Assembly (NCBI GenBank): GCA_038087875.1
Contig: CM075987.1
Coordinates: 18,354,001-18,414,000, forward strand
Source of the DNA: Malacoraja senta
Taxonomy: Eukaryota
Length of the DNA: 60,000 bases
Direction of reading: 5' to 3'
The notes under the pieces were generated by a model, which was not told the DNA's origin, searched no databases, and saw only the letters and a program-made list of their open reading frames with translations. Made by a program: the position numbers and the translations under genes. This document shows positions 934 through 44,794 of this stretch, in pieces; the stretch's first letter is position 1, and every line of letters begins with the position of its first letter.

Positions 934-1769
934 GTGAGTGAAATAACTTAAATACATACACTCAATCTCAGCATTATTTTCTACCTTGAAAATCCTTATG
1001 TCTGTGTCAAGGCCCATAAAGAAGGATTTCATAAGGACTGGACGCATGAGAGAGAATAAAAAGTAGACCAAGATGTTATGGCTGAGTGGTGTGAAGTGTG
1101 TGGAGTTTTATATGTAAAAGCATATATAGATCTGATGAAAGCTCCCGACCAAAACATCGCCTGTCCATTCGCCCCAAAGATGCTACCTGATCCACTGTTC
1201 TTCCAGCATTTTGATTTTTCTCTCAAGATTCTAGCACCTGGAGTTTGTAATTAACAAACATCTCATTTGGTTCTTTGGGGTTTGACTTTGGATGTGAGCA
1301 GAACAAACATGGCCACTTCCAATTGCCTATCATTTTAATTGCTTCCATGTACTGCATTGTCACAATGAATGCAAATACTGAATGTTGAAGAGTCATTTTC
1401 TCCAGATACCATTAACAATATGGGCAGCCATTAAAACAAATTATAAAAGATCTATAGAGACAAAAGATTGACGCTGGAATAAGGAGAAAAAATAAAAATG
1501 TGTGGGAGAATCTCAGTGGGCCAGAGAGCATCTATGGAGGCAAACAACCAAATTATTTTGACTCCTAATTATTTGCTAACATCTTGATAAATGGAGGTTG
1601 ACAAAATACTCTATAGTGTGTTGGTTCCTTCCATGGAAAAATAATCAGTAAACGTGAATCATTTGCTCATGCCCCCAAGCCCCATAGGGTTGTTCTGAAG
1701 CTCAGGGAGCCCATGCCCTGTTTAAATTACTTTCCCTGTTTCCACCCTGGCCTATCCCAGCATACCCCA

Positions 1770-1900
1770 GAGTCTGAAGAAGGGTCCCAACCTGAAACGT
1801 TGCCTGTCCATTCCCTTCAAAGATGCTGCCTGACCCACTGAGTTCCTCCAGCAACTTTGTGTTTTGCTCAAGATTCCATCATCTGCAGTTCCCCGTGTCC
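1770..1900 (+). mobile_element. PLE terminal fragment
   Basis: agtctgaagaagggtcccaacctgaaacgttgcc...catctgcagttcc. Confidence 0.75.
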
Positions 1901-2857
1901 CCAGCATAAACCCTTCTTGATTTCCACTTCGCATTTTTCCATTCTCTTGCCTTGAAATTTGACTAATTTGTTCCTTCCCAATTTAACAGTGCAGAACGTT
2001 TCTCCTGGGGTGGGAATGCTGTGATAGGCTGCATTTTAATGTCTCTTAAATCATGATAACACTTTCCTAAAGCAAGGATGTCCTAATGTTGCAGTTATTA
2101 TTGCAACTTCCAATTTAGCATTACCAAACCAAAAATGCTTAAAGGCCAATTTCTTGGCAACAATCTCCCAGGAGACGGGAGAAAAAGGGGTTTATTGGGC
2201 TAGTTCAAGAGGCAAATCTGCAAAATTCATGTCCAATCCCTGAAGGATGTTAAAATGTGCCACCAATGATTAAGGTGGCCTTGAAGACTTTAACCTGTAG
2301 TCCCACCAAACTACGGGAGCTAATCCACAGCCAGAATTAATTGTATTCGGTGAAATAATGTGTATCAAAATTACACAAAATGTATTTTTGGTGTTTGTCC
2401 TGGAATGTTTATGTGAAGGTCAATTATATAGAGCTAGTGCTTATCCAGAGGTTGCGTTGATTTGGACAAGAAGAAAGAAGCTCAAGTATCGAACGAGGTT
2501 ATTTCAATCTCAATATGTGACACTTCCCAAAAGGTTTTCAAATGTTGGAGTTGCCAATCCCACATTGAATGAAGTTGTGGTATTTAACTGTCAGTAATAA
2601 TAATGACAGAATAGTTGTCTTCAAAATCGGTCCCGATCCAAAGATGCGACACCTTCTGATCTCACTTTACCAACAAACCAATACTTGACCCTGCGTTTCT
2701 GCTTGCAACATCACACATGATTGACATTGGTATCTAGCCACTTGTACAGGAGCAGATGTCTACTTGGTCTTGCCCAATTATAGAGTGAGAATCCCATGGC
2801 ACAGTAAAAGATGTTGCAGCCCACCATGGCCATACTGGCCATCAAATGTCCAGCTAT

Positions 2858-3726: not shown

Positions 3727-4090
3727 ATCCATCCTAACTCTGCCCCTCGTAATCTTGTACGTGAATGCTACAATGAATGGTATCAGGAAACCCTCAGTCT
3801 CCTCCAGCCCAAGGAAAATAACCTGTCCGATCTGTTCTCGCAATTGCCATGTCCCATCCATGGTAAATCTGCTCTGCACTCTCTCCAATTAAATCACATC
3901 TTTCCATTGGTGCAATGACCAGAACTGCACACAGTCCTCCAGATGTGGCCTAATTCAAGTTTTTCTAAGTTATGCCATCATCTTCACGCTCTTATATTCT
4001 AGGTCTTGGCTCATAAAGGCAGCATTCCCATAAGGTTTCTTCTTCATCTCTCTACCTGTGCTGCTGCCTTTAGAGATCTATAAACCTCTA
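3727..4090 (-). mobile_element. Degenerate CR1 LINE ORF2 fragment
   Basis: Reverse strand encodes an ERVQSRFT-type CR1 C-terminal motif; accagaactgcacacagt matches the CR1 YCVQFW region. Confidence 0.65.
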
Positions 4091-4311
4091 CACCAAATAT
4101 GTTCAATGGTCTATAACCACGTTCCAGCCATAGAGTGAGTTATGTTAACTTAGAAAAGTTGTTCAGTGACAATTATTTTCATCTTATTCCAACCATGGAC
4201 CAAAAAGCGGTGTTACCTGAGCTGCTGCCCTTGACATCAAAGTGGCATTGAGGAGTTCTGATAAAACTGAATTCAATGGCTATTAAGGGGAAAAAAATCC
4301 AATGGTTGGAG

Positions 4312-4502
4312 TCACAAGGAGCTGCAGATGCTGGAATGTTTAGCAAAACAACCAAGTGCTGGAAGCACTCACTGGGTTAGGTAGCATCAGTGGAGGGAAA
4401 TGGACAGATGACATTTTGGGTCGTGACCCTTCTTCAGACATCGTCTGGCCATTTCCTTCCACAGATGGTGCCTGACCTGCTGACTTCTCCCAGCATGTGT
4501 TT
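4312..4502. mobile_element. PLE terminus with inverted duplication, nested in an old LINE RT remnant (about 4180-5000)
   Basis: Minus copy running to cttcttcagac, followed by a plus copy starting just after the hammerhead core. Confidence 0.7.
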
Positions 4503-5137
4503 ATTCACATAAAGTGCGGTGTTGAAATTCAATCATCATTCCCCAGCAAAGCAATGTCACCAGTGTCCTAGGTCACCTTCAGCTGGTTTGTCAGTGACTT
4601 TCCTTCCATCATAAGGACAGGAGAAGTATACTAGCTGATCCTTGCATCATGATTTTATTTTGGCAAAATAATCAATCTATACCTGCATACAGTAATAATT
4701 ATGCAGCATTCAGGCATGGACTGATAAGTGGTAAGTAACAATTGTGCTAGGCAATGCTATTCTCTAACAAGAGAGAATCTAATTAACTACCCATGATGTT
4801 CAATGGTGTGACCATTGTCGAGACCCTCATCACCAGGATCCTGGTGTCACTGTTGACTAGAAATTCATTTGGCTAGTCACATGAATGCTATGGCCAGGAG
4901 CAGGTCAGAGACTAGTATTTTGTGGCAAATGACTCATCAGACACCCCGTCTACAAGCATATGACAGGAGTGCGTTGGAATACTATTTGTTTGCTTTTAAT
5001 GAGTGTGTCTGAAACAATTTTCAATATACCTACTGGATTAGAGGATTTTAGTTGTATTTGCGATCTTCTTGAACCATTCTCGTAGAAGTGAAAGCACTAA
5101 CATTTTTCATTCAGAATGGATTTTTAGCCATTTATTG

Positions 5138-5390
5138 AGCATAGAACAGTAACTCGCAGGACCAGGCCCTTTGGCCCACAATGTTCATGCCAAACATAAT
5201 GCCAAGATAAATTAATCGTATCTGCCTGCATCTGATCCTCATCTCTCCATTCCCTGCATATCCATGTGTCTATCCATAAGCTCTTAAACCCCACTGTTAT
5301 ATCTGGCTCCACCATTACCACTGGCAGCATGTTCCAGGCATCCATCCACATTGCTGGGCACATCTCCTTTAAATTTTGCCCTGGCCTCAC
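5138..5390 (-). mobile_element. CR1/HER1-like 3' tail fragment
   Basis: catagaacagta...caggccctttggcccacaatg...catatccatgtgtctat. Same family as 12250-12610, 16350-16668, 29185-29418, 35975-36270, 37625-38043, 41730-41905 and 49310-49995. Confidence 0.75.
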
Positions 5391-7286
5391 TGTAATATTA
5401 CACAGTGAGTGTTAGTTTCTTGCAAGATGACGTCTTGACAAAAGCCCTTAAAAATTATCAAGACATTAGGTTGGACGCTGTCTTCTGCATGCAAGCATAG
5501 TTTCTTTTGCTGGCCTCAAAGAAAGATGCACATAAGGATCAGAGAACCCTGGGGTCTTCCAATTTTCTGGTATTAATTTTGGCATCAGCTTTACCATATT
5601 TCTTGCATTCGGCAATAATGATTTAATTAAGCATATGCCTTGAAGAATGTGCAGAAAGTGAAATGTCTCTAATTTATGAGCTAACTTTGTAAACGTTTTA
5701 CAGAGTACACAAAGATTGGAACCGTTGAATGAGATTGAGATAGGAACTGTGATCTCTTAACTTTAATAACATTTTAAAATTTGAAATAGCATGTAATTTG
5801 GGTATGAGTATCCAAAGTAAATGAAGTTGATATGGAATTAATTTTCCAGTGTCTAGAGGCTTTCGACAGTAACTACATCATCAAAGATTGATTGATAAGG
5901 TGAATCATACTGACCCTTATTCAGTGGAATTTAATTTTGTCATGATTTTGTATTGAGGATGTTATTAAAACATTGAAATAACATTTGAAAAAGATATATT
6001 GATTGCACTGGTATGGAAAAGCAGGTTTCACTGACAGGACCTCCTACACTTAAGTATCTCTGGAAGCTTGAGAAATTACTTCCAGTTTTGCAAAATGCCA
6101 ACGGACTTTAAGAGTATAATTGTCATTATATCTGCAAAACTTGGGTCATTGATGAGAGAAATGGAAGCCACAACACAAATGTTAATCATCAAGTATTTCA
6201 CTCAATCATTTATTTTAAGAACTGAGGGGAAAAATCCAAGTGTTCTGAGACTGGTGTACTCATGTTCGTCTGAAATAGTTGTATGTTATGTCAGAGAAAT
6301 TGTCATACAGTTTGGGAATTGTGGCCTCACTTGGTTTATCCTCGTATCTTTAGTCCTGATTTCAGCCACAGCCTCTGCATCAGGGAACCAAAACAATTTT
6401 GTATGGGTGCAACAAGTTGTGTCCTAGTACAACGTAGCTGGAGTAATATTTTGACAAAGACTTGGCTGCAAAGTACTTACAACAAAGAAATAATAAATAA
6501 AAGAAAGATTGTGGCTAATTCAAAAGCCACATCTTACTGAATGGCATAATATCATTTAGGATACAAGCTTAGAACTTCATTAATAAAGTTAATTATAAAA
6601 TAATGCATGATTTGAACTGCCATTGTATAATCTGGTTATTGACACTGGGTTTATATCTATGGTAATAGTGTTTTTATCACAATGAGCACTACTTTTTATA
6701 AAAACAATTATCCACCTTTATTAAAGAAAAGTTCTTATTAATTGTTTTGTGCTGCATTTTTGTCACTTTTGATTTGGTATATAAAGATTGTGCACTTCCA
6801 GCAAATTTCCTATTCACTGAAGCTGAAAAGAACTCAACTTTGATGCTTTATCAATTAACATTGATTAAGAGTTTTATACATTAATACAAAGCTTTTAATA
6901 CTGTTACTTTTTTTCTTTTTCCTCATTATTCTTTCTTGATTCTTTTTATTTAAGTTTTGTTTAATTGGTGCAACTCCAGTTCCATAACTTTATTATTAAT
7001 TTAAAACAAAGATGTGCAGCATCTCCGCTGAACTGTCTACATCCTGGGTACACCTTTCCATCAATGATCTTTGAATGAGTGCCAAACTATTGGCGATTTG
7101 TCAAACAAGCCTGAAGATTGACATGGTCATTCCACTGTCATGCCTAAATCTACTTTTTAATGTAATGTTCCAAATGCAAAAGTAAGGCAGGACTTCTCCT
7201 TTGAGGTGTTGCGATGTTGATGGAGTTTGCGTTGACTGTTCCCTTTCTGTTACTGCTTTCTTCTCCTTTGTATGTGTGACGTGAAG

Positions 7287-7307
7287 TTAACCAATCCACA
7301 GCCTATG
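7287..7307 (+). CDS. KCNT1: Candidate 21-nt alternative microexon, inserting VNQSTAY between ASM and GTVAMDLQ
   Basis: Pyrimidine tract then gtgaag|TTAACCAATCCACAGCCTATG|gtaagt. Phase 1/1 and stop-free. TGCATG at 7316 and 7463, YCAY cluster just downstream. Confidence 0.55.
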
Positions 7308-8639
7308 GTAAGTAATGCATGCACATCCTGCCATCATACATCAACTCACCTGAAAGGGTTTTGAGTCCTGTCTGATTTTTGTTTTTCGTAAGCTTCATTG
7401 CAATTTGTTCTGCTTTAGCCATGGTAAGGATTATTGTTTAAATTGTGCAGTTCCAATTGCAGTGCATGTAATGTTATTGGATGGATATGCATTATTTGAT
7501 ACACCTCATGAAATGCCAAATAATTAGTTTAGAAGCATAATCTAATAACAGTAATCTTTGAATACCAAAGGCAAATGTTGGAAATGTGCAGCAATCTGGA
7601 TGACACCTTAAGGAAACAATAGGTTGGCACTTGAATATTGTCATCAGACCTGGTTCTGCTGAAACAGTCTTATTTTAACCAGATGCTGACTGGCCTTTTA
7701 CATTTTTTCCTCTGATTTCCAACATTTGCAGTCTTCCTTTATGTGTCAACGTTATTACTCATTTGCATTAAGTTCATGTTTTCAGGTGCTTTTTCCCCTT
7801 CATCTCTTGAATTGATTTCACTTGAGTTTTTGTGTGACTCTTCATTGTTATAAACCAATGCAGAGGCTAATGTGAGCAAAACACAAAGTACTGCAGGAAC
7901 TCAGAAAGTCGGGCGGCATCTGAGGAGGGAAAGAGCAGGCAATGATTTGGGTCCAAACGTCGTCTACCCAACGATGCTGCCTAACCCGCTGTGTTCCTCC
8001 AGCACTTTGTGTTTAGCTCAAGATTCCAGCAGCTGCTGTTCCCTGTGCCTCTAGAAGCAAACATCATTACTGGGTGGTGGGTTTACTGTGTGTTATACAG
8101 AGTAATCATGATACAAGGCTTTATGGGGGATGTATAGCCCGGGCTGTTTCCACCCCAGCATGTGGCTGAGTGGACTGCATTCCCTCCTGGATTTTTCTGG
8201 AATTTTCAGAAATTGCAGGACCTGAACACCAGTGAAATCATCTTCCGCGAGAAAGTCTTTGGAGATTTTTTTAATAAAAGTTTTTTAATCTGTTGATTAA
8301 TAATTTTAGAAAGATTGGAGATTGGAAAAAATAAATAATCACCTGGTGAATATATCCAACCAGATATAATTGTTGACTGCAGAGAATTAGCAATGGATTG
8401 GTCAGCTGTAAAAACATGGTTATGAATGGAATTTAACCAGGTGCAGCCTGAGGCCTCTAGTGAAGGGGAAACAAGGCATGATAGATAATCCACTGTAAAC
8501 TGTACGATGTTGAGAGGTGGAGAGGGCAGTTCTGTAGGAAAATAAAACAAATTGGTGGACATAAAGACATAAAGTAAAAGTGATGGAGTCTTGCTGGAAC
8601 TGTATTAAACACATGTTAGGCCAAAGGATACAAAGGACA

Positions 8640-9445
8640 TTTATTATCACATACACCAATTGGTGTAGTGAAATTTGACTTGCCATTGCAGCACACAGAT
8701 AAAGATAAGACACAACATTAAAGAATGTAACAATAAACATAAAAACATCCCCCCCACAATGGTTCCCACTGTGAGGGAAGGCACAAAGTCCAGTCCCCAT
8801 CCCCATGTTCACCCATAGTCGGGCCTATTGAGGTCTCCGCAGTCGCTGCTACGGGGGCCGATGTTACAGGCCCTTCTTCGCCGGGTGATGGTGCTCCGGC
8901 GTCGGGAGAATCCTCTCAGCGGCTTGGGACACCTGGAGCGGCCGCATCCTTACTGGAGACCGCGGCTGCCGAAGCCAACAGGCCGCGCTGGATGGAGCTT
9001 CACCACTGGCGATCTCGGCGAGAGATCCCAGGCTCCCGGTGTAAAGTTCAGCACCGCTGCCAGCGGCTGGCCGCTCCACAGTCCCGCAGCTCCGCAATGT
9101 AGCATCGGCGGTCTTCAGCTCACCGGAGTTCCAGCGCGGCGACCCGGGCAAGGCATCGTCCGCTCCGCTCCGCGATAGCGCTCCAGCGCTGCGCCGCCAC
9201 CGAAGCCGAGGTTCTTGGCGGTCCCCTCAGGAAACGCCGCTCCAGGCCCGCTGGTAGGCCGCGAGGATGGGTCGGAGAGAAAAGCCGCCTCTCCGACCAG
9301 GTAGGGACCCTGAAAAGTAGTTTCCCCCTTCCCCCTCCCCACCCCCCACATAAAAAGACTAGAACTCCGAAAACAAAAACTCAACTAACTAAAAATAAAA
9401 AAAAGACAGAAAAAACGGACAGCTGCAGGCTGGGCAGCCATACCT
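8640..9445 (-). mobile_element. CpG-rich non-autonomous retroposon with Rex1/Babar-like 3' tail (variant 1)
   Basis: Minus-strand tail ...tgtgataataa; shares ordered terminal blocks with 18765-19425 and 47665-48450. Confidence 0.6.
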
Positions 9446-11285: not shown

Positions 11286-13741
11286 ACACTGTAACAGAAG
11301 TCATGATACATGATGCAAATTGTAGTTATATACACTTTCCATTGAAAAGCCTATTAACAAATCTATGATTACATTAGTTATTTATTAAATGTAAATTATT
11401 CTATCTATGAGCTATTTGTAAAGGGCATAACATTATAAAGCTACTTATCATTTACAGACAGCCTTGTATCGATACATTGTCACAGCAATAAATCTCCTTA
11501 GTTCTGATCTCAACTAAAGCACGATAATGTCAGTTATGCTACTAATATATCCTGGAAATGATAAACCAAATAAATGATTTCTCCTTCCATTTTCACCTTT
11601 GACAAATCTTGCCTTCTGTATTATTAAGGATGCTTAGCCTGTTCCAAGCCACGTATACATTTCTAAACATCAAATATAAATGCCAAACTTGACACAGACC
11701 AACACATCCTCCTGCGCAATTGCAGTTGTCCGTTCTTGAAAAATGACATCAAGATATCTCAAATCCAAAAACAACAATTCCTGAATATTTTTTTTAATAT
11801 ATTGCTTCTCATCTTCTTGATTTAAGTAAACAAACCAACTCTCACTTCCATTCCTCATGGATAATGATCCTTTCTTTTCACGGCTGCGGGGGGGGGGGGG
11901 GGGGGTCATCACCTCTGACGGTTCCCTCTGGGTGGGTTTCAATCTAATTATCGTTCTTTGTTCTTTTACAAGATGTGCACGGTCTCTTCTACCACAGCAT
12001 CGACATCAAACTGGATTAAGGTGGCATTGTTACAAACACCCCAGAGATTTCCAGCAAAGGTGCAGTTATTAGCTACACTCTCTATGAACTGCCTGCCTTC
12101 TATCATCTGAACAAATCGCTGGGTCCATTTTTGAACCCCTTGCTACTGAGGATTCCATCACTCACAGAAGCAAGATTTCTGTCTCCTAGACTCGACACCT
12201 CAATCTGTGGCTGTCCTGTAGCTGTGCTCTTTGCTTTCCACTTTAAAGACCATAGAACCGTACTGTACAGGAAGAGACCTTTTGGCCCACAATGCCCGTG
12301 CCAAACTTAACGGCAGATTAAACTAATCCCCTTTGCCTGCACGTGATCCATGTCCCTCCATTCCCCGCATATTCATGCACCCATCTAAAATGCTCTTAAA
12401 TATCACTATCGTATCCGTCTCCATCACTGCCTCTGGCAGCGGGTTCCAGGCATCCACCGTGTGTGTGGGAGAAAAAACATACCCCGCATATCTTTAAACT
12501 TTGTCCCTCTTGCCTTACAGCTATGCCCTCGAATCCTTGACATTTCGATCATGGGGGGGGGGGGGGGGGGGATTGTTCTGACTGTCTACCCTATCTACCC
12601 TCGCATCATTTTATTTACTTTTAATCCATTGTCAAATATACATACATTTTTGCATCCTATGAAGATGAATGCATCATTTGCAATAGAAACTTGGTCCAAA
12701 TTTTAACCCTGGAATGAAGCCAATCTTATCAGAAGCAGTGAATTATTGAGCAATATGACACGACTATTAGAGCTGCTTAATATCTTCCTGACCCAGCCAG
12801 GTGATACACTGCATACACTCAATGAACACTTTTATCACACGTTTAAACTAAACTGCAAACACACTTTAAATTGGAAGTTCTGAAGGTGCTGCATTCTCCT
12901 TCAGTCTGCAAATAAACTCTGCTGTTTAGAGAGTCCCAAGACAATGCCTACAGTGCTCATTGCACTGGCTGAACTATCAATGTTCTCTTCCAGTTTCTCT
13001 GCAGGAATGCTAAGAGCATCCCTTTTCCCTTCCACGTTATTGTACCATTTTATATAACAGGTATCAACCCTGAGATGAGATTACCTGTCACGTTGTTGGT
13101 ATGCATGACTTGTATACTGTTCTAGAAGGTACCATTGAAGGAATGGTTAGCCATTATTTTGGCCTTGTTCAATATATCAAACCGGGTTATACTACTTATA
13201 GCTGATTGCATGGTCTGGAAATGGCCTGAAATCTGTAGAGGCTTATTAAATCACTGGTTTAAAGTTGGCACCGTTCATTTGGTGGTTCAGATCGACCTGG
13301 TCTTCACTGCGATGGTCAGCACGGAGAAGGGTTCAGAAAAGAGAGGGGAAGATGGATGGAGGTTAAACATTAGTGGGACTGGGTGACGTCGAAGTTTGTA
13401 GGTGAGGGTTCAAAATGATGGGATGGTGGAGGTTCTGAGAGAGAGAGAGAGACTCCACATAAAATGGACCAGAAACGCAGAGGTTATGTCCAGGCATGCC
13501 ATGCATGACATGAAACTCCACCACATTTGTCCAGTCTTCTCCATTTTACCATTTATAAAGGATCATGACCCTCCTCCCAATGAGGAATACACAGTACACA
13601 GAACATAGAACACTACAACACAGTAATGGGCCCTTCGGCCTACGATGTTTGTACCAAACATGACGCTAAGTTAAACTGATCTCATCAGCCTGTACACGAT
13701 TCAAATCCCTCTATTCCTTGCACTTACAGCACATATGCCTA

Positions 13742-14248
13742 CCTTAGGTGTCAACTGCTCTTCATCGGTGAGACCAAGTGCAGGCTTGGCGATCGCTTCG
13801 CCCAACACCTCCGCTCAGTTTGCATTAACCAACCTGATCTCCTGGTGGCTCAGCACTTCAACTCCCCCTCCCATTCCGAATCCGACCTTTCTGTCCTGGG
13901 CCTCCTCCATAGCCAGAGTGAGTGCCATCGCAAATTGGAGGAGCAGCACCTCATATTTCGCTTAGGTAGTTTACACCCCAGCGGTATGAACATTGACTTC
14001 TCCAATTTCAGTTAGTCCTGGCTTTCTTCCTCCTTCCCCTCCCCTTCCCAGCTCTCCCACAGCCTGCTGTCTCCGCCCCTTCCTTTCTTCTTGCCGCCCC
14101 CCCCATCCCCACATCAGTCTGAAGAAGGGTCTCGACCCGAAACGTCACCTATTCCTTTGCTCCATAGATGCTGCCTCACCCGCTGAGTTTCTCCAGCATT
14201 TTTGTCTACCTTTGATTTTTCCAGCATCTGCATTCCTTTCTTAAACAA
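13742..14248 (+). mobile_element. 5'-truncated Penelope-like element: GIY-YIG endonuclease C-terminus plus terminal repeat
   Basis: 13746-14015 reads RCQLLFIGETKCRLGDRFAQHLRSVCINQPDLLVAQHFNSPSHSESDLSVLGLLHSQSECHRKLEEQHLIFRLGSLHPSGMNIDFSNFS*. TSD ATGCCTA at 13735-13741 and 14249-14255. Inserted into a CR1 tail. Confidence 0.88.
14119..14146 (+). ncRNA. Minimal type I hammerhead ribozyme motif (PLE-associated)
   Basis: CUGAAGA-A-GGGUC(UC)GACCC-GAAAC-GUC: core boxes, stem II, palindromic ACGU stem III and a GUC triplet. Stem I is only about 2 bp. Confidence 0.6.
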
Positions 14249-14965
14249 ATGCCTATCTAAAAGCCTTTTAAACTATCGTATCTGCCTCCACCATCACCCC
14301 TGGCAATGTGATCCAGGCCCCCACCCCTCTCTGTGTAAAAAAAAAAAAAACTTGTTCCGCACATCTCCATTAAACTTTCCTCCTCTCACTTTATTTCTTC
14401 TCTGGGGAAAAAGGTTTTGACTGACTACCTTCTCTATGCCTCTCATAATTTTATACACTTCTACAAAGTCTCCCCTCAACCTCTGATGTTCCCGAGAAAA
14501 CATTCCAAGTTTATCCAACCTCTCTTTGTATCTAAAACCCTCTAATCCAGGCAGTAAATTAATGGTTTACCTGTATGATTAAAATCAGCATTGTATATGA
14601 AACTTTAACATGACATTATCCATTAGGAGGCCATTGACTCTCTAATAGCATGTTGTTATCCTGTCAGAAGATCTGATTTGAAATGAAACTCTGGCTTTTA
14701 ACAAGTACAGGAAAATAATGTTAGGTAGAAATGGTGATGCTTGGGCTTCTGTGTCGATAACATTTCTCCCAAGAAGATGACAATCTTTAAAATTCATATG
14801 TTCTTGAATTTTGCTCTCTTTTTAGAGAACAATGTAAATGTAATGTTTGTCACAGTAAAAACAAAATTGTGCGAGGAACAATCTTAATCTGACAATCAAC
14901 CTGTGGATCACAGCATAAATAGGGTTAACTAGCATGCACTACGTGAATGACAGTTAATCCTTCGA

Positions 14966-15250: not shown

Positions 15251-15277
15251 GACCAAAAGAGATCAACGAGACAACAT

Positions 15278-15371
15278 TTTTGATTAAACTTGCAATCGAG
15301 TGATTGATTGAAAAATACAGCGTGGAAACAGTATTTTTCAATCAATTACTCGATTGCAAGTTTAATCAAAA
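15278..15371. repeat. 41-bp inverted repeat with 12-nt loop
   Basis: Arms 15278-15318 and 15331-15371, one mismatch (G-U pair on the + strand). Confidence 0.92.
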
Positions 15372-17119
15372 TTCCTTTGATACCGGCCACTTAATTCTTA
15401 TCCTGTGGGTTATTTTTACCATCTGATCAACCTTGCGATCATTCATGGCTCCTCTACTCTCAAAATCAATATTACAGAGAAGGCTTCTCTCATCTGTCCT
15501 TGTATCCCTCTCCACTCATTTCCCAAATCCACTTATTTAGAAAGGTTCAGATTAAAATCTCTCCCAGGATCACCTACAAAGACCTAACTGCCTGTTCTTC
15601 ACTGCTCTATTCTACCCGAATCACTTTCCATCCTCCACTTATGACATACTTCAACCCAGTTATTTGCATTTGTATGGCATCTACCTTGCTGATATAGAGG
15701 CAGTTAAAAATAAGTTGACACGCTGACTAATTGAGTCGTGTTCTGCAAAGCTCAGCTTTGCCTATAAAACAGTATTTTACACACTCATACCCAAGATCTT
15801 TTCCCTTGACAAATGAAGCTGTTGGTCATGAATGATACTTGCTTTCATTGACATTTCAGATCAGATTGAAAACTCTGGCAAATGTGCAGTTGCAAAATAA
15901 GTTGTTGACTGTGGACCTTCCCAGCTGTCAGAGACTGGGGAAGGTCAGTCAACATCACCAAGACTCGTTTGCTGACCTGAATAGCTGGGCTGAAGTCTTT
16001 GCTAGTTTCTGTCATGAAAGATGAGAATGTGCCCAAGGCTGAGCCTTGTGAATAAATGCACAGGCACTATACTGCCCTTATGCATGCCAACTGATGAATA
16101 TTGTAGAAGAGCAAGCACGAGTTGTTTACAGGGCATTTTTGGTGGCATAGTAGCAAAACTTATAGAGTTGCTACCTCACAGCTCCAGTGACCAAAGACCA
16201 ATCCTGACTTTCTGTGCTAGCTCTGTGGAGTTTGCATGCTCTCCCTGTGACTGCGTTGGTCACAAACACCTGATGGCTTTAGGTGCATTTGCTTACATTG
16301 CACATTCTGCTGCCCAGATGTTTTTCAGGCAGTTCTAATGAAAGCCCAATAATAGATTGGGTAGATAATCAGAACCTTTGTCTCAGGAGGGAAATATCAA
16401 CATAGCTTTAAGGTGAGAGGAGCAAAGTTTAAGGGAAATGTGCAGAGCAAGATGTTTTTATACTGTGGGTAGTGGGTGCCAGGGGGGGGGGTGTGGTGGA
16501 GGCAGATACGATAGTGTCGTTTAAGAGGCTTTCATATAGGCACATGGATATGCAAGGAATGGAGGGATATGGTTCATGTGCGGGCAGAGCTTAGTTTATC
16601 TTGGCATCATGTTCAGCACGGCATAGTGGGCTGAAGGGCCTGCTCCTATGCTGTACTGTTCTATGTAATATGCTTCGGGCATGATTCTCTACCTACAGAT
16701 TACACCTTGATCTGCTGAGTGTTTCCAGCAATTTATTTTTATATTTTGTATTTGACTAATTGCGCTGTTAATTGATTGGTGTTAATTTCCCAGCCTCCAG
16801 TTTCTAGTGCCTTTTGTCGTTCTGGCATACATTACTAGCGGTGAGACTGAGAAAAATCACACAAAGGAGTGTTGATGCATTTTATTCTTGATTACAGAAC
16901 AACACCCCCAGAGAGCATAAATGTGTTATGCAGCAGAGCCTTTGTGGGGAGTTTTCACATTCAGTCCATTACCAAGATGAATATTGCCAACATGGCCATT
17001 TTACTGTTTGCAAGATCAACTTGCCCAGATGAATGCAGTCACCATATTTCAAAATAATTCAAAATATGTGAATATCTTTTTGTGATTCTTATTTTAGTGA
17101 AATATCATTGTCTCTGAGA

Positions 17120-19466: not shown

Positions 19467-19590
19467 CTCATTTTGAGGAAGCACGGGGAGGGAAAAAAGT
19501 AGGGAGGAAGGACGAAAGTAAGTGGTGATTCTGTAATTGGGTGCAAGACGGGAGAGGGAATATAAGCAGAATGATTTCCTACATACTAAA

Positions 19591-19719
19591 GGTAGATAAA
19601 AATGCTAGAGAAACTCAGTGGGTGAGGCAGCATCTATGGAGCGATGGAATAGGTGACGTTTCGGGTCGAGACCCTTCTTCAGACCGATTTTTCCAGCATC
19701 TGCAGTTCCTTCTTAAACA
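19591..19719. mobile_element. Young PLE insertion with 5' inversion and 14-bp TSD
   Basis: TSD TCCTACATACTAAA at 19577-19590 and 19720-19733. Intact hammerhead core on the - strand at 19655-19682. Confidence 0.85.
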
Positions 19720-21883
19720 TCCTACATACTAAATATAATTTGTACGATTATTGTCTTGTAATCTTACAAAGTTATTGTAAATTAATATTGTAATGTTACT
19801 GTAATGTAGCAGGAACATTACTGTTTGTAACGTAATATTTTGTACAGTTACGTACTAAACTGTACATGCAATGTTACTGTCTCACTGACAGAGTAACAGA
19901 AAACCCATAGAGGATACATATTTACACTACGCATTCAAAATTCAACCCTCCACTTCTTCACAGTAATCAAACTCTTGCTGAACACGAATGATTCCAGCTC
20001 TTACTAACTCAAGTTTCCAAACTACCATTTCCTTTTTGGCAGGATTTTTGTGTATATTGGTACCAAATGTTTATTACCGTTTAAAATGTAAAATGCTCAG
20101 CAGGTCGGGCAGCACTTGTGTGGCCTGTGTAAATTGCCTCTAGTGTGTATGGAGTAGATGCGAAAGTGGGATAACATAGAACTGGTGTGAACCGGGTGAT
20201 CAATGCGGACTCAGTTTACCAGCTGTATCTTTCAATCAATCAACCTCCCAAGGGAGATACATGCCCGAGTTGCCCTATGTGTGCCCAAGAAGCCACTCTC
20301 AGAATGGCCTTTGGGATCACCAGACGAAGCAAACTCTTGTCAAGCCTGGTGCACCGATGCTTCCATCTATCCACTATCTATCTACCACTGTTGGAATGGA
20401 AACATATCCAAGCAGGGATTTCAGCCTCTCTGACCTATCCCAGTGTGTTTTGCTCCTTATTGCAAGTGGAAAACAAAATGCCACAACATTTTCATCCAGT
20501 TTCTTTAAAAATGTTTTAATGAGTTCTGTGCACGTTAATGATATTATTAAGTACACAAAATACAATGGAATTTTTGGATGAATCGGAACAGGAAATGCTT
20601 GGTCCAAATTCCCTAATGGGCCTCAACTCGAAATGAGCATGAGAGGTGAATTTTGTGTTTTACGTGAGATTTGCACATTAAGAAACAGCTGCAGTTTTGT
20701 AAATCCTATTTCGATGTCTGTGATAAGTTAAACAGAGATTGGAACTGAGTGACAAAACAGATGAGAACCCAAGGCCAAGGCTGGGGGGGTAAAGGGATGA
20801 CAAAGTGAGCTCAGAGGATCAGGAGAACTGTTACCAGCTCACACGATCTGAGAAAATAGAAATAACAAGAGCACTTCACTCATCCTCTCTGATCAGTTGA
20901 TGCACTTTTTCAGCCAATTTTTTACACATTTTACTAAAACAATTGAAATGGATCAGGGTTCATATGTCCTAGCATTCAAACTTATATGTGGCAAAACCCC
21001 ATAGAAATAGTGGAATTTAACATGTGTTAAATTTTGGGTGTGAGCTGCATCAAATTGCATCATTCTGTGTGACTCTGCTGTTGGGGATCCACAGGGTAGA
21101 TCGGCACAAATTGGCCCAGGAACCACCGCTGCTGCACTTTTCCGGGGTAACTAAATCTTCACAGTGCAGTATTGAAAATAGACACAAAGTGCAGGAGTAA
21201 CTCAGCGGGTCAGGCAGCTTCTCTGTACACCTTTCTCAATAGGGCAGTGCTGAAATTGGATTCTGGTTAGATAAGTCCCATAAAAAGTCGATTCTTTATA
21301 TCCCATCTTTGCTGTGCCCCTCACTCGACCCAACAATGCGACCTCACCCTGAGCTCCTGATCTTCCCTCTAATCAGTCTGAACTCCCACACTCCCTTTGG
21401 CCCCGAGCCCCTGATTTAAACAAGAGCCACGAATGCCCGCAGGGTGTCCTGAATTCCACCCTGAATCCTTCCCTGCCACTTGAATGACATCCAGACCCTC
21501 TCCCCACCCCTTTCTGGCTGTGTACCTAATATTGCCTCCACTAAACCTTGCCCTAAGCCATCACATCTGCATCAGCAAAAGTGGACAATGCCTTTTCAAC
21601 AACACTTGCTGAACTCTGCAATACCAAGCACACAATCAAAACATTTGTTAGTGATCGTTGCTCGGGCCACTGGGGACACTTGAATAAATAAAGCATTATT
21701 TATTTGAAGAGAAGGTAGGTGGTACAGTTGTGGTCGCCTCTGCCTTGACTGGAGGTTGGTAGCCTTGCCCATGACTACCTGGAATGGTTAATGTAACTGT
21801 ACTTCATGAACTGTACTTGGAATGGTTAACTTAACTGCGTTTAGTTGCCTCAATGTTTGACCCTCCTGTCATTTTCTTTCTAG

Positions 21884-26065: not shown

Positions 26066-28273
26066 CAGGGCTCTCGCTTAACTTTTTTCCCCCTGTTGCC
26101 GGCCGGGCAACCTTGGCAGCTTTTTAGGTTGCCAAATGACAGTTTAGGTGGTCATTTAAGATGGCTTGCATGACGCGTGCGATAATGTGCTCGGACGAAG
26201 TGCTTAGTTACCAGTCGGAATTATACTCAATGAAGCATTCACATATTATTTCTGCTTCAAATAAAGTCACAAACTAAACATATTCACCAATCAAGACATG
26301 ATATATCCCACAATGACATGCAGCAAAATTATAAGACAGTATCTCAACTCTTTTTACACATAGCAATTAATGCAATTTCTATTAGTTCTTTCCACTTCCA
26401 AACAACAATGCGGTTGGATTATTCAGCGTATGATCAACCTGTGTCAATAAATCCTGGACCATGGTAACATATATGCGTATGTATAGTTGTGAATGTTGCT
26501 CATTAAATAACTACAGTACTGATACTCCATATTAAGAGCATTGATTTGCTGTTAAAATGAATTCTGTAATAACGTGTCAACGGCAGCAGTGACAATCGAA
26601 CACTGCGGTTTTAATGTTTCACGTGTTCACAATTTAATTAATCCATCTTTATGTATTAAAACAAATAATAACATTGGGAATTAAAACACATTTGATTGCA
26701 TTCCGTTATCAAACATAGTCAAAGTTCGCTCTGAAGACATTTCCAGCACAATAGGGTCAGGGAGGGTGGTGTGTGTGAATCAGTGCGGGGTGGATAGATG
26801 GCGGGGGTGGAGGGGGGGTTAGACGGCAGTCGGTGCAGAATGGATGGATTGAGGCAGGTGAATTAGTACGTGTTGGTTGGAGTAGGTAAAATTGTGAGGG
26901 GAGAGCACCGGGGATGTTAGTGGTGTTGAATGGGGGGGTTCAGTACGGGATGGATGGGGGTAGACAAAAGTGCTGGAGAAACTCAGCAGGTGAGGCAGCA
27001 TTTATGGAGCGAAGGAAATAGGCAAAGTTTCGGGTCGAGACCCTTCTTCAGACTGTTCCCCCCATTCTTCTTGGATGGGAGGATCAGTAGAGGATGGATG
27101 GGGGTGGAGATCAGCGCAGGATGAATGGGGGGGGGGGGTCAGTACAGTGTGGATCGGAGGGTCTGTGCAGGATGAATGGGGGATCACTACAGGATGAATG
27201 AGGGGAAGGGGGGAAGGTGCAGGGTAAATGGAGGGTGGGTCAGTACGGGATGAATGCGTGGATTAGTACAGGTTGGATGGAGGAGAAGTGGAGGATGGAT
27301 GGGAAAGGGGTAAGTACAGGGTGAATTGGGGAACCAGTGTAGGATGGATGGGGGGGGGGGGGTGGCAGGAGAATCAGTGCGAGGTGGATAGGGTGATCAG
27401 CGCAGGATGATTAGATGGGGGGGGGGTAGATGGGGAGGGGAGCACAGGGAATGTCAGTGAGGACTGAATAGAGGCGGGAATGGGGATCAGTGCGGGATGG
27501 AGAGGAGGGGCCCCAGGATAAGAGGGGTGCAGGGGGGCGTACAAGAGAGAGGGAGAGGGGGGGCGAGGTGGGGAGGAAGGAAGGTCAGCGCTCCTCGGAC
27601 AACATCGCCCCTCTGCCTTGGCCGTTGGGAACTCCTCGCCACCGCCTCCCTCCTCCGCCAGCCAACAGCAAGGTGCGGGGCCGGGAGGGTCAACTCAGAG
27701 ATCCTATAAGCTATAAGATCTTTGGTGCAGCTGCTTCAGACGAGTCGGAGTGAATGACGGGCCCCGAACAGCGGCTCCACTGCCTCCTCCTCCCGCCCCC
27801 CGCCCGCCCTGATAAGGGCCTCTGCTTGTAAACCCGCTAACAGTGATAACCGCCCTCCCCCTCCCTCCTCCTGGCCTCGGCTTGCGGGAGGGTTTGTTTT
27901 GAAAGCGGTTATCGCCGTTATCGGGTTTACAAGCAGAGGCCCTTATCAGGGCGGGCTGGAGGAGGAGGAGGAGATGGAGCCGCTGTCGTGGCCGCTGCTG
28001 CCGCTGTGCGAAGCCCATCATTCGCTCCGACCCTTCCTCACCCCGCACCTAGTATCTTTGCCCCACAATACAGCCATCACCGACACAAAACGTCGCGTTC
28101 CTTTTCTCCAGAGATGCTGCCTGACCCGCGGAGTTACTCCAGTTTTTTGTGTCTATCTTTGGTACAAACCAGTATCTGGTTGCCAAGCCGGGCAAAATGA
28201 CTTGGTGTTTAGGTTGCCCGGCGGTGCTTTGAGTGGTCAGTGGCACCCGGGCAACCTCTAATTTCGAGCCCTG
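26066..28273. mobile_element. Non-autonomous TIR DNA transposon with 5-bp TSD (hAT5-like)
   Basis: Termini CAGGGCTC...GAGCCCTG. TAAGT at 26061-26065 and 28274-28278. Subterminal GGTTGCC/GGCAACC repeats at both ends. No transposase ORF. Confidence 0.75.
26760..27530 (+). repeat. Degenerate purine-rich minisatellite inside the transposon
   Basis: Recurrent cagt(a/g)c(a/g)ggatg(a/g)atggggg units. Confidence 0.75.
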
Positions 28274-28943: not shown

Positions 28944-29516
28944 AGTGACTCGCAATCCCACAGTCTCCGAATGGCAATTGTGGGAGGAAAACAGCAGTAA
29001 AAGGACATAACCCCAACCCAAGAGTCATACAGAAGATTGACACAAAAAGCTGGAGTAACTCAGCGGGTCAAACAGCATCTCTAGAGAAAAGGAATAGGTG
29101 ACGTTTCAGGTCGAGACCCTTCTTCAGACATACAGATGGAGGAACACATTGATGTGCAGTGCACAGACAGTGGAGATTGGAATGTAGAACATAAACATTG
29201 AACCGTACAGCACAGGAATAGGCCCTTTGGCCACAATGTCTGTGCCAAACATGATGCATAGTTAAACTAATCTCGTCTGCCTGCTTATGACCTACATCCA
29301 TCTAAAAGCCTCTTAAAATCCACAATTGTACCTCCAACCTGGGTGCCCACCACCCTGTGTAAAAACACAAACTGGACCTGCAAGCTCCTTTAAACTTTGC
29401 CCCTCTCAACTTAAAGCTATTGGGAACAATATGAATGAACAAATTTACAAAGCAGCCTTGGGTGATTTTTGAATATGTAAATAGAGACATCAAATATAGG
29501 TATTAGGAAGTAATGT

Positions 29517-29727
29517 GTAGGAAGGAACTGCAGAACCATTCTACATTTCCTTGTCAGCATCCGCTTCGCTCTGTCGATTTCACACCTTACCCTTCAATAT
29601 CTCTAGACTCCTTCTCCCCTGACTCTCAGTCTGAAGAAGGGTCTCGACCCGAAACGTCGCCCATTCCTTCTCTCCAGAGATGCTGCGTGTCCCGCTGAGT
29701 TTCTCCAGCATTTTGTGTCTATATATG
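29517..29727 (+). mobile_element. PLE insertion with inversion and 12-bp TSD; hammerhead core at 29631-29658
   Basis: TSD AGGAAGTAATGT at 29505-29516 and 29728-29739; ctgaagaagggtctcgacccgaaacgtc. Confidence 0.8.
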
Positions 29728-31719: not shown

Positions 31720-33102
31720 TCTGCTTGAAACAAGCTCCTTGGTGCTTCTAGAATTTTTTGAAGATGTAACAAGTAGAATGGATAAGGGAGAGCCAGTGGA
31801 TGTGGTGTATCTGGACTTTCAAAAAGCCTTTGACAAGGTCCCACACAAGAGATTAGTGTGCAAAATTAGAGCACATGGATTGGGGGTAGGGTATTGACAT
31901 GGATAGAGAACTGGTTGGCAGACAGGAAACAAAGAGTAGGAATTAACGGGTCCTTTTCAGAATGGCTGGCAGTGACTAGTGGGGTGCTGCAAGACTCGGT
32001 GCTGGGACCCCAGTTATTTACAATATATATTAACGATTTAGACGAGGGAATTAAATGTGACATCTCCAAGTTTGTGGATGACACAAAGCTGGGGTGGCAG
32101 TGTGAGCTGCGATGAGGATGCTATGAGGCTGCAGGGTGATTTGGATAGGTTGGGTGAGTGGGCAGATGCATGGCAGATGCAGTATAATGTGGATAAATGT
32201 GAGGTTATCCACTTTGGTGGCAAGAATAGGAAGGCAGATTATTATCTGAATGGTGTAAGAAAGAACTGCAGATGCTGGTTTAAATCGAAGGTAGACACAA
32301 AATGCTGGAGTAACTCAGCGGGTGAGGCAGCTGATCCAGAGATCCAGCGATGCTGCCTCCCTGCTGAGTTACTCCAGCATTTTGTGTCTATTATCTGAAT
32401 GGTGTCAGATTAGGAAAAGGCGAGGTGCAACGAGACCTGGGTGTGCTTGTACATCAGTCACTGAAAGTAAGCATGCAGGTACAGCAGGCAGTGAAGAAAG
32501 CTAATGGCACGTTGGCCTTCATTGTGAGATAATTTGAGTTTAGGAGCAAGGAGATCCTACTGCAGTTGTACAGGGCCCTGGTGAGACCGCACCTGGAGTA
32601 TTGTGTGCAATTTTGGACTCCTAATTTCAGGAAGGACATTAATCTGGTAGGTTCACCAGATTAATTCCCGGGATGGCGGGACTGACGTATGATGAAAGAA
32701 TGGGTCGACTGGGCTTGTATTCACTGGAATTTAGGAGAGGGAATCTTATAGAAAAATATAAAATTCTTAAATGGACAGGCTACATGTAGGAAAAATGTTC
32801 CCGATGTTGGGGGAGTCCAGAACCAGGTGTCACAGTTTAAAAATATGGGGTAGGTCATTTAGGTGAAACATCTTCACCCAGAGAGTTGTGAATCTGTGGA
32901 ATTAATCTGCCACAGAAGGCCGTGGAGGCCAATTCACTGGATGTTTTCAAGAGAGAGTTAGATTTAGCTCTTAGGGCTAAAGGAATTAAGGGATATGGGG
33001 GAAAAGCAGGAGGTACTGATTTTAGATGATCAGCCATGATCATATTGAGTGGCGGTGCTGGTTCGAAGGGCCGAATGGTCTACTCCTGCACCTATTTTCT
33101 AA
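31720..33102 (+). mobile_element. 5'-truncated CR1 (HER1-like) LINE, RT domain to 3' end, disrupted
   Basis: LLEFFEDVTSRMDKGEPVDVVYLDFQKAFDKVPHKRL, SVLGPQLFTIYINDLDEG, KFVDDTKL, WQMQYNVDKCEVIHFG. Frameshifted. Confidence 0.93.
32257..32388. mobile_element. Hairpin-shaped PLE insertion nested in the CR1, 17-bp TSD
   Basis: TSD TATTATCTGAATGGTGT at 32240-32256 and 32389-32405. Confidence 0.88.
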
Positions 33103-36100: not shown

Positions 36101-39001
36101 CATATCACATGTTTTTACCTAAAAGCCCCTGAAACCTCATTATCGTATCCAGCTCCACCACTCATACCAGGCACATACCACTCTGTGTGTAAAAAAAACT
36201 TGCCCGCATATCTCCTTTAAATTTTGCCCCTCTCACCTTAAACCTTTGCACTCTAATCTCTGACATTTCCTCAGTTGTGGCTGCAAGACCCAACAGGAAC
36301 AAATGGATAGGTTTCTTTAAAAAAAAAAAAAAATCTGCTTTCGGCCAAATAAAGAATTTAAATAATTGTTAAAAAAATTGTCATATAATTAGCATTCTCA
36401 TTTCAGGATGTAAAAGTTCCACCATTTAATCCTAACAACGTTCTTTGATTTCCATTAGCGCTCGTGCCACTGCATCACAGTGAGACTGTTTCATCTTCAG
36501 CCAAGATCTCCTGCCTTTTGAGTGAAGCTAATGGCTAACCAAGTAGCAGCTTTGTTTCACAGAAGCATCATATAGTGTATAGTTCCATTTCAGTTTCTAT
36601 GTGGTCAAAAAGAGGGAAGTATTAGTCATCCATTTAGTGCATGATTCATTTTCAATTATTGCACTGAACTAGGTATTAGCTACTTAACTTCGGGGAAAGT
36701 TGCTTTGTCCTTGGAACTATTTTATAGTGCAGATTGCCCAGAATAATGCCAGGTGAAAATGATTAAATTATGAGGCAGATACAAGGAACTACAGAAGCTA
36801 GACTCTTGAGTGAAAAGCACAAAGTGCTGGACTAACATCTCTGGAGAACATGGATAGACATTTTGTGTTTGGATTCGTCTTCAAACTGATTGTAATGCGA
36901 GGCGGGGGAAAGCCGGAAGAGAGATAGGGACGGGACAAAACCTGGTAAGAGATAGGTGGATACAAGGGAGGGTGGTTGATTGGCAGTGTCTGAAGGAGGT
37001 CTCGACCCGAAATGTCGCCTATTCCTTTTCTCCAGAGATGCTGTCGACCCGTTGAGTTACTCATCTTTTTGTGTCCATCTGGGTTGATTGGCAGTTGGAT
37101 GGAGAAAGACCGGAGACAAAAAGGAGGTAAAAGGCAGTGAAGGTGGTGAGAATAGGAGCAAAAGAGTGAGTCCAGAGAAAGGGCTGTAGGTGGAAGCGGG
37201 GGGATAGCGGGAAAAATGGGTGAGCATCCATGAGGGCAGTTTGCATTCCACATAGATTATTATACCTTGTGTTGACATGGTTGAAGGGCAATCTTGTCAA
37301 GGTTTATGAACTGGTAAACAAATGAATTAGGAAGATGATAGGGGCCAGTACCACCAATGATAAAGAAAACTGAATTAAAAGACAATATTTAAAATTATAG
37401 CTTGGTCACGTAGAAGTCTATGTGTGAAACAAATTCACACAAAGAGTGTGCAAATCTAGAGAACACCATCTCAAAATGTCTCACAGTGAGGCAGTGTTAA
37501 AATGCTAATCCAATTGGAATTTTGAAGCCTGACAATGTTGAGAAGTATTTCCAATAAGAACTTGGAAATAATGAGGTTCAGATCAGCCACTGGGTTGCAA
37601 CAAGCTCAAGTAAGAAAATTGGAATACATAGAACATAAATCAACAGCATAGGCATAGGTCTTTCGGCCCACAATGTCTATGCCCAGCATGATGCCAAGTT
37701 GAATTAATGTCCTCTAACTGCTTGTGATCCATATCACTCCATTGCCAGCATATCTAAGTGCATATCCAGAAGCCTCTTAAATGCAATTATTGTTTGTGCT
37801 TTCACAATCGTCCCAGGCAGTGGGATCCAAGTACCTACCACTCTCTGTGTATAAAAAAAACTTGCTCTGCAAACTCCTTTAAACTGTGCCTCTCTCACCT
37901 TAAGGTTATGCCCTCTAGTCTTTGACATTTACACTCAGGGGAACAAGGTTCTGACTAAATACCCTATCTGTGCCGCTCAGAACTGTATACACTTCTCCCA
38001 TGAGGTCCTCCCTTCAGCCTACAACGCTCCAGAGAAAACAATCAGACTTTATGGATTCAAACCTTAATTCCCTTTGGGAACAATTACCTACTTTGCCATT
38101 GTATCTAAACACGTAAAGGACTTGCAATCGAGGATATTTTTCCAATTAAACGCATGAAGGGTAGTCATTGGGCTGGGTGGTCAAAACAATGCCTGAAAGA
38201 ACCATTAGCAAAATCTGAAGAATATTTCTGAAGAACAGCTCAGCCCATTTTAGAAACTGGGCAAAATTCAAATCGTGAACATCATTGCTTATTTACAATT
38301 GACTAATCTATTGATCACTGTGCTGAGACTTAATCTGATGGTACGGTGTTTCGATTTAAAAGTCATTAGGTGAAGTAATTTTGGATTCAAAGTGAATTTT
38401 TCTGTCTTTTGGGGGTTGGCTAGCTTTTAACAATGGGTTTGCCTAACCACAACCTGTGATTGAGCCAATGGCACCATCTTGTGGTGATGTGGATCTTCGT
38501 TCAGAGAAGCATTTTTTTTATTGTTTATGTAGCTTTATAAAGAAAAAAAACTTTGCAGCATCACAAACAACTTATAGCCAATAAAGTATTTTGACATGCA
38601 ATGATTATTGTGAGGTGGAGAACATGGGTATTTGTTTCTGCACAGTCAATATCAAGAAACAAATTGCTAGAGGAAACTCAGTGAGTCAGGAAGCATCAGT
38701 CATGGCAAAGGGATAGTTGAAATACTGCATTTGGAATTCACAGATGCTGCTAGATCCTGGCAACATGTTCAGCATGGACATTGTGGTTCCTGTGTGTCCA
38801 GTTTTATGATCCACAGAGTTCCTCCAGTAGGTTGTTCCTTGTTCAAGATCACAGCATCTGTGTCACCTTGTGCGCAGTTACGTCTTACAATACAATTGTG
38901 ATCAAATAAACCTTCATCTCATACAGGAGGAGGCTCATCAGAGCGTTCATAAGCTCATGGCTGATCTGATTGGAACCTCAACCTGAACCTTGTATTCCCA
39001 G

Positions 39002-39067
<66 letters not shown>

Positions 39068-39195
39068 ACCCCCCCACCCCCCCCCCCCCCCCCCCCCGCC
39101 CCACCCCCCCCCCACCCCCCCCCCCCCCCCCCCCCACCCCCCCCCCCCCCCCCCCTCACACCCCCCACCCCCCACCCCCCCCCCCCCCCCCCCCC

Positions 39196-39264
<69 letters not shown>

Positions 39265-39288
39265 ACCCCCCCCCCCCCCCCCCCCCCC

Positions 39289-39325
<37 letters not shown>

Positions 39326-39335
39326 CCCCCCCCCC
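39002..39335. repeat. Near-pure poly-C tract of about 334 bp
   Basis: C run with sparse A/T/G interruptions, inside a CR1-like tail fragment. Confidence 0.9.
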
Positions 39336-41924: not shown

Positions 41925-42124
41925 NNNNNNNNNNNNNNNNNNNNNNNNNNNNNNNNNNNNNNNNNNNNNNNNNNNNNNNNNNNNNNNNNNNNNNNNNNNN
42001 NNNNNNNNNNNNNNNNNNNNNNNNNNNNNNNNNNNNNNNNNNNNNNNNNNNNNNNNNNNNNNNNNNNNNNNNNNNNNNNNNNNNNNNNNNNNNNNNNNNN
42101 NNNNNNNNNNNNNNNNNNNNNNNN
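41925..42124. other. Assembly gap (200 N, probably a placeholder length)
   Basis: Run of exactly 200 N. Both flanks are CR1-tail repeat sequence. Confidence 0.99.
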
Positions 42125-44785: not shown

Positions 44786-44794
44786 AACTCTTCA

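Follow-up and report, generated by a model that had tools for sequence, protein, structure and literature searches.

What is the origin of a short, repeated sequence with a hammerhead ribozyme motif in an intron of a skate gene, and does it act on the RNA of its host? The window analysed here (60,000 nucleotides of Malacoraja senta; GenBank assembly GCA_038087875.1, contig CM075987.1, positions 18,354,001 to 18,414,000 of the forward strand) holds exons of KCNT1 and many copies of this repeat. The original prediction, made from the letters alone, linked one copy to an endonuclease remnant, assigned both to a Penelope-like element (PLE) and proposed that sense copies might cleave KCNT1 pre-mRNA. 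We favour a related explanation with a probability of about 0.87. The locus is a dead, 5′-truncated, endonuclease-positive (EN+) PLE of Neptune type, the short repeat is the hammerhead-bearing end of its pseudo-long terminal repeat (pLTR), and the dispersed copies are neutral products of internally primed, uncleaved RNA.

The sequence at 13745-14248 is a 5′-truncated PLE, of Neptune type by its linker and by exclusion. Its open reading frame (ORF) end, spacer and flanks are as follows:

13735 to 13744, forward strand: left copy of an approximately 10-bp target-site duplication (TSD), identical to 14249-14258 at 9 of 10 positions, read from the sequence
13746 to 14015, forward strand: 3′ end of the PLE ORF from the 5′ truncation point, the C-terminal part of the GIY-YIG endonuclease; GIY lost, YIG read as FIG, two His of the CCHH motif present
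14016 to 14112, forward strand: pyrimidine-rich (about 80% C+T) spacer or 3′ untranslated region, variable between subfamilies, from the sequence and contigs
14249 to 14258, forward strand: right copy of the target-site duplication, read from the sequence

Contigs without the insert join both flanks (13725 to 14250 or 14272); genome-wide statements, here and below, are based on Logan contigs. The flank of the element resembles what we take to be an antisense end of a CR1-type long interspersed element (LINE). The predicted stop-free frame was borne out: it comprises 89 codons, ends at a TAG, and its peptide is 80% identical to skate predicted proteins. The description as a GIY-YIG remnant holds for the C-terminus of the endonuclease and fails for the motif itself, which has lost GIY and has FIG in place of YIG. 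Of the CCHH motif, the window peptide keeps the second C and both H, and its relatives have the whole motif. We reject the open frame as a sign of function, since it starts at the truncation point and carries private changes relative to the family.

The window peptide itself gave no match in a Pfam search. The upstream part of its skate relatives showed weak similarity to Pfam GIY-YIG in four of five tested (E 8e-4 to 0.05, below the curated cut-off). A profile search returned 7,279 proteins at E up to 0.001, among them 11 long relatives (609-927 amino acids) with 38-49% identity over the window peptide. The motifs DKG and Y(I/V)DD or FIDD are present in all nine long relatives checked, seven of which also combine a C-x-CxxC linker with the GIY-YIG pattern. 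Pfam RVT_1 and GIY-YIG were matched in all four long relatives tested, GIY-YIG below its cut-off. The telomerase-like reverse transcriptase (RT) is absent from the window and found in these long relatives; no further PLE ORF remnant was found in the window. The linker lies outside the window fragment and was seen in P0002 and P0003, which are 80% and 73% identical to the window peptide. A CX2-5CxxC linker between RT and endonuclease is common to Neptune and Nematis (Craig et al. 2021, PMC8557442), and the only vertebrate PLEs found by Li et al. (2026, 10.64898/2026.07.22.740005) belong to Neptune and Poseidon; Neptune thus follows by exclusion. Predicted host proteins of the skate (P0001-P0003, P0007 and P0276) contain translated pieces of the element, either the GIY-YIG end or the short unit, and are probably gene-model artefacts.

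The hammerhead core begins 104 nt past the stop codon in the same sense, as a pLTR hammerhead downstream of the ORF. The short unit and its surroundings comprise, all on the forward strand:

14114 to 14119: TCAGTC, which we take to be initiator-like; many genomic copies start at 14116-14117
14117 to 14148: minimal type I hammerhead, predicted cut between 14146 and 14147
14117-14118 with 14147-14148: helix I
14119 to 14125: hammerhead core; extra A at 14126
14127-14130 with 14135-14138: helix II; loop at 14131-14134
14139 to 14142: GAAA; palindrome at 14142-14145; C17 at 14146
14149 to 14213: rest of the short unit to the first class of 3′ ends (about 14208-14213)
14214 to 14248: optional tail of about 35 nt (second class of 3′ ends)

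The 28-nt core of the motif is exact at 14119-14146, 29631-29658 and, on the reverse strand, 19655-19682, as had been claimed. The proposed scan with a descriptor of the minimal hammerhead gave five matches in the window, and 100 dinucleotide shuffles were all free of matches. Three of 20 whole-motif copies are fully canonical (core nucleotides, G10.1-C11.1, palindromic 15.1-16.1 and H17), and two more have G.U at 10.1-11.1. Furthermore, the motif fully fits the published consensus of minimal PLE hammerheads (CUGANGAH, G..C, GAAA, palindrome, U, H; Cervera and de la Peña 2014, PMC4209133), including the nucleotide lying between position 9 and position 10.1 and the palindrome. Because this consensus has it, the extra A is the norm for PLE hammerheads. 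The analogy to a viroid hammerhead is needless. For helix II, a stem of 4 bp closed by a 4-nt loop (CUCG) is a better reading than the proposed 5 bp with a 2-nt loop. Helix I is 2 bp long and reaches 3 bp in one copy; paired cells make up 82%, and folding does not favour it. Precedents for 2 bp exist in the Culex, Drosophila and Oikopleura rows of the published alignment (PMC4209133). The copy at 44663, taken earlier for an alternative stem II that still pairs, was rejected as covariation, as its U-A to U.G change is one-sided and uncompensated; U4 is missing from this copy owing to its truncation within the core box. None of the 16 matches of an Rfam cmscan search (E up to 10) is to a hammerhead family, as would be expected for a motif without helix III. 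Folding z-scores (minimum free energy) were not significant in four of four stretches.

How common is the unit? An nhmmer profile built from 13 window copies found 42 segments (22 forward, 20 reverse) in the window; the reversed window gave none. Together with one tail-only BLAST piece these form 32 loci, in line with the estimate of about 30 copies, and all 14 further positions named in the prediction lie in nhmmer segments. The hammerhead unit measures about 100-140 nt; the repeat length of 130-200 bp given earlier does not hold, the longer lengths being inverted composites. The family and its most informative copies are:

582 to 54415, both strands: span of the 32 family loci, 4,527 bases including the main element, 7.6% of the window
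1768 to 1904, forward strand: copy of an older subfamily, descriptor match with a G10.1.U11.1 wobble
19577 to 19733: insertion with a perfect 14-bp TSD, an inverted unit joined without overlap to a forward tail
29028 to 29133, reverse strand: antisense copy, descriptor match with a G10.1.U11.1 wobble
29625 to 29721, forward strand: second fully canonical sense copy, core at 29631-29658, no tail
32240 to 32405: head-to-head pair flanked by a 17-bp TSD, within the remnant of a LINE RT
44648 to 44800, forward strand: tailed copy with a 15-bp TSD, its truncation point within the core box

Close pairs are head-to-head in 11 of 11 cases and never tail-to-tail, and the 32 loci include no close pair on the same strand. 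Head-to-head is the most frequent arrangement of PLEs (PMC3846280; PMC8557442). Clear TSDs occur at 19577-19733 (14 bp), 32240-32405 (17 bp) and 44648-44800 (15 bp); apparent TSDs at 16706, 20090 and 21166 were dropped as self-overlap artefacts. In the insertion at 19577-19733 the inverted unit is equivalent to 14117 to about 14213, with its canonical core at 19655-19682 (reverse strand) and the forward tail at 19686-19719. One arm of the pair at 32240-32405 has the tail and the other lacks it, and the hammerhead is absent from both; this pair breaks the LINE RT remnant at 31751-32260. Consensus fit, GIY-YIG link, head-to-head pairs, tail and TSDs together bear out that this is the end of a PLE and that it carries a minimal type I hammerhead.

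The ends of the copies are informative about their formation. BLAST 3′ ends fall into two classes: of 34, 23 lie at 14186-14214 and 11 at 14231-14247, with none between, which matches the optional 30-40-bp tail of PLEs. The 5′ starts cluster at 14111-14121 (16 of 34), none further upstream and one at 14145-14148; the first letter of many genomic copies lies 2-3 nt before the core and does not coincide with the cleavage site. The same edges appear in run X1, for which 232,580 contigs were compared. Summed depth, which is no copy number, is 1.1M at 14087-14109, climbs to 27-41M across 14110-14201 and drops to 2.3M within the tail; over the ORF end it amounts to 2.6-9.1M. Among the best-supported loose contig ends of X1, those at 14113 (990) and 14114 (1,611) run into pyrimidine-rich spacers of other subfamilies, and those at 14116 (1,264) and 14117 (1,225) into unrelated, AT-rich sequence (agreement 0.31), for which reason the latter are considered insertion junctions. 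None of these best-supported ends lies at 14147, and the depth shows no step there. The consensus letter preceding the junction at 14116-14117 is G in four of five instances (runs X1, X18 and X21, the last two guessed to be RNA), which is a hint only; a matching letter is excluded by construction. The simplest account of the 5′ edge would be a capped start at 14116-14117; others are RT stalling, a short master family or splicing. In published elements, a rotifer pLTR contains an initiator-like TCACT (PMC3846280), and Penelope has an internal promoter (PMC2377424).

A model for these structures is available from PAc, the Anolis Poseidon element (Frangieh et al. 2024, PMC11167929). There, two internal RT start sites flank the tail, cutting and extension affect both DNA strands, the ribozyme requires the protein, and uncleaved RNA is the main template. 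From such PLE biochemistry we infer that the skate protein would nick AT-rich DNA on both strands and that reverse transcription would start at either internal site, about 95 or 130 nt into the uncleaved pLTR RNA. The complementary DNA (cDNA) would run from this start to the RNA 5′ end, giving short copies similar to short interspersed elements (SINEs); with an internal start, most cDNAs would therefore consist of the short unit only, with or without the tail. Priming from both strands would yield the inverted composites. The insertion at 19577-19733, in which inverted unit and forward tail do not overlap, may represent one RNA primed at both sites. The hammerhead would serve the active element, probably in protein-assisted or dimeric processing of tandem transcripts. 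It would be kept in source elements and be functionless in the inserted copies, those in KCNT1 included.

Inserted copies indeed look neutral, because the core decays at CpGs, covariation does not exceed that of shuffles and there is no strand bias. Non-CpG mismatches affect 15 of 199 core cells (7.5%) and 57 of 621 cells in downstream non-diagnostic columns (9.2%; p = 0.57). Compared with all downstream columns (92/694) the core has fewer mismatches (p = 0.035), the core being without subfamily-diagnostic columns. Essential CpG positions are lost in 24 of 77 cells (31%) and non-essential ones in 19 of 73 (26%; p = 0.59). Whole-motif copies number 12 in sense and 8 in antisense orientation (p = 0.50). 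In the helix II alignment 88% of cells pair, and no measure lies above shuffles; in the 14 better-aligned of the 20 whole-motif copies, the covariation score was reached by 141 of 500 shuffles, and the number of pairs changed on both sides by 43 of 500. The original prediction had named a lack of excess core conservation and of stem II covariation among the results that would refute it, and neither excess conservation nor covariation was found (p = 0.57; 141/500). Read from the sequences, source elements appear to have kept the core while inserted copies decay neutrally.

Several points weigh against this explanation. The clade is set by motif and exclusion and not by a tree. The link between the short unit and the ORF rests on one copy and on spacer-spanning contigs, with no full-length element. 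BLAST ends near 14202 are partly due to subfamily divergence. The loose ends described are the best-supported ones, 1,679 more existing beside them, and contigs cannot show RNA ends. In addition, most loci show no clear TSD, and weak selection could be missed in a sample of 20 whole-motif copies.

Within the preferred explanation, a more specific picture can be proposed tentatively and is itself rather doubtful: a skate SINE-like mini-PLE of 100-135 nt in perhaps about a million copies (scaled up from the 32 loci of the 60-kb window to a genome presumed to be about 2 Gb), with a capped RNA polymerase II start at TCAGTC and two 3′ edges set by internal RT starts, whose hammerhead trims a capped leader of about 31 nt. 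The ends would then record the transposition cycle of Neptune, and the frequent preceding G would be as expected from cap copying. A hammerhead at the extreme 5′ end of the transcript would act as a decapping or translation switch and not in the release of unit-length RNA. Somewhat less probable still is that the short unit forms its own non-autonomous SINE-like or retrozyme-like family, with masters of fixed 5′ end that have their own transcription and owe their mobility to the PLE protein acting in trans. This possibility is compatible with the preferred explanation and differs from it in the template only. It would suit the excess of X1 depth over the unit (26-41M) relative to the ORF end (2.6-9.1M), as well as the sharp 5′ edge, the at least two or three sequence subfamilies and the head-to-tail joints from 14212 to 14117 (10 contigs in X1, 1 in X18) and from 14153 to 14116 (13 contigs). 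Retrozymes, moreover, derive from pLTRs and are reported from one chondrichthyan (10.64898/2026.07.22.740005). However, the subfamilies differ in the upstream spacer too, as seen at the pyrimidine-rich loose ends at 14113-14114, and therefore exist as longer elements. Tandem joints are also rare among the 232,580 contigs, and same-strand close pairs are missing from the 32 loci. Rare head-to-tail repeats of equivalents of 14116-14212 (periods 38, 57 and 96) occur elsewhere in the genome in run X1 and are the best candidates for putative active dimers.

Splicing could likewise sharpen the 5′ edge if the spacer were a spliceosomal intron, running from CAG/GTAG at the stop codon to CAG/TCTG at helix I. 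A polypyrimidine tract and CAG directly precede helix I, at 14012 the family letter is G for 1.52M of 1.82M depth, which makes AG/GT, and an intron of D. virilis Penelope ends at helix I (PMC4209133). We nevertheless regard this origin as improbable, as no GT..AG joint is found among the best 15 of 286 joints, contigs of a run guessed to be RNA span the spacer unspliced, and the sequence before 14116-14117 is AT-rich and unrelated (agreement 0.31), with no common exon. Annotated proteins do not support CAG/TCTG as a splice acceptor either; only one of eight candidates holds the unit, and it enters upstream of this site.

The last question concerns the host gene. KCNT1 lies on the forward strand, with exons placed by tblastn from about 693 to 58479. 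The exon at about 693-935 matches KCNT1 structures and shares 95% identity with a skate protein, more than with any other of the top-ranked matches. A composition-based scan of the window did not reveal the KCNT1 exons, whereas homologs did. The element lies in the following intron:

936 to 21885 (approximate bounds, about 21 kb), forward strand: KCNT1 intron, from structure match and tblastn

As the gene is on the forward strand, forward copies of the repeat are sense. Sense copies in the pre-mRNA had been supposed to pair through the palindrome and cleave, which would alter channel expression. Two canonical sense copies exist (14119 and 29631), dimeric minimal hammerheads show low cleavage in vitro (PMC4209133), and one of nine Xenopus dimers is highly active (10.64898/2026.07.22.740005). 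Nevertheless, the idea is unsupported and we consider it very improbable. These sole two fully canonical copies in sense orientation are separated by 15.5 kb that include an exon, and helix I has only 2 bp. In folded contexts the probability of helix II is at most 0.04 in three sense copies and 0.25 in the antisense one, and that of helix I about 0; the predicted folds pair the purine-rich core with a downstream pyrimidine stretch. The cofold minimum is -21.5 kcal/mol, and the dimer-like structures, at -12.7 and -9.4 kcal/mol, lie 9-12 above it, non-canonical core contacts being outside the model. Published monomers are inactive (PMC4209133), as are eight of the nine Xenopus dimers (10.64898/2026.07.22.740005), and the Anolis ribozyme depends on the PLE protein (PMC11167929). 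Finally, sense copies are not depleted, cores decay freely, and neither an excess of core conservation nor covariation is seen. Dozens of decaying short copies are thus unlikely to cut KCNT1 RNA.

The skate element can be placed among known systems. With the metazoan PLE hammerheads described in PMC4209133 it shares the CUGANGAH core with its extra nucleotide, G10.1-C11.1, GAAA, the palindrome without loop 3, the short helix I, the location in a pLTR and the mostly dispersed single motifs; its helix II of 4 bp is shorter than in most fish examples given there. Its density of 20 whole motifs per 60 kb is far above the 4,000-9,000 per genome of coelacanth and Xenopus, although that study counted descriptor-passing motifs only. 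No cartilaginous fish was found among the sequences of its Fig. S3 that were examined. The C-terminal GIY-YIG domain with CCHH, the pLTR, the inverted 5′ copy and the 30-40-bp tail are shared with Neptune EN+ PLEs (PMC8557442), as is the Zn-finger-like linker, seen here in close relatives. Unlike these, the skate locus has only the last 89 codons, and Neptune and Nematis are not separated by a tree. The two classes of 3′ ends a tail apart, the AT-rich targets, the structures fitting priming on both strands and the copies from uncleaved RNA recall PAc (PMC11167929). PAc belongs to another clade, and helix II contains the start of its ORF; for the skate unit, no such start was identified. Non-LTR retrozymes (10.64898/2026.07.22.740005) are likewise pLTR-derived short hammerhead repeats of vertebrates, one chondrichthyan included. 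They are defined by tandem units, at least two consecutive ones with a hammerhead and 363 bp on average in the chondrichthyan, in contrast to the dispersed 100-135-nt monomers or head-to-head pairs described here; the window contains no such tandem units, and tandem joints elsewhere in the genome are rare.

In the literature searched, whose scope excluded Lunse et al., Repbase and Dfam, no report of this PLE family in skates or other cartilaginous fish was found. A prior description is possible, as PLEs and retrozymes of one chondrichthyan are covered by Li et al. The link between ribozymes and PLEs is already established, so that the finding as stated is not surprising. Its value lies in the abundance and geometry of short Neptune insertions with sharp ends. 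This very large natural sample offers an in-genome test of the internal-priming model, so far shown only in vitro for one Poseidon element, and of the role that PLE hammerheads play. Skate repeat annotation is concerned as well: the pieces can make up several percent of a gene's sequence, and they can also turn up in predicted proteins.

Some other features of the window deserve mention. A near-pure C run of about 400 bases at 38950-39385 is possibly a sequencing artefact. Long, near-perfect inverted repeats at 27775-27978 and 15277-15372 have sub-threshold Rfam microRNA matches and are possibly duplicated sequence or similar to miniature inverted-repeat transposable elements. A gap of N lies at 41925-42124, and residues of about 776-938 of the closest KCNT1 homolog are unmatched in the window; they would map between 40055 and 42299. 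The KCNT1 exon at 46666-46988 is split by tblastn into two frames, a frameshift that is probably an assembly error. Lastly, a 21-codon KCNT1 exon at 50345-50407 is present in the skate homolog P0011 and unmatched by P0012 or P0018, which likely reflects alternative splicing.

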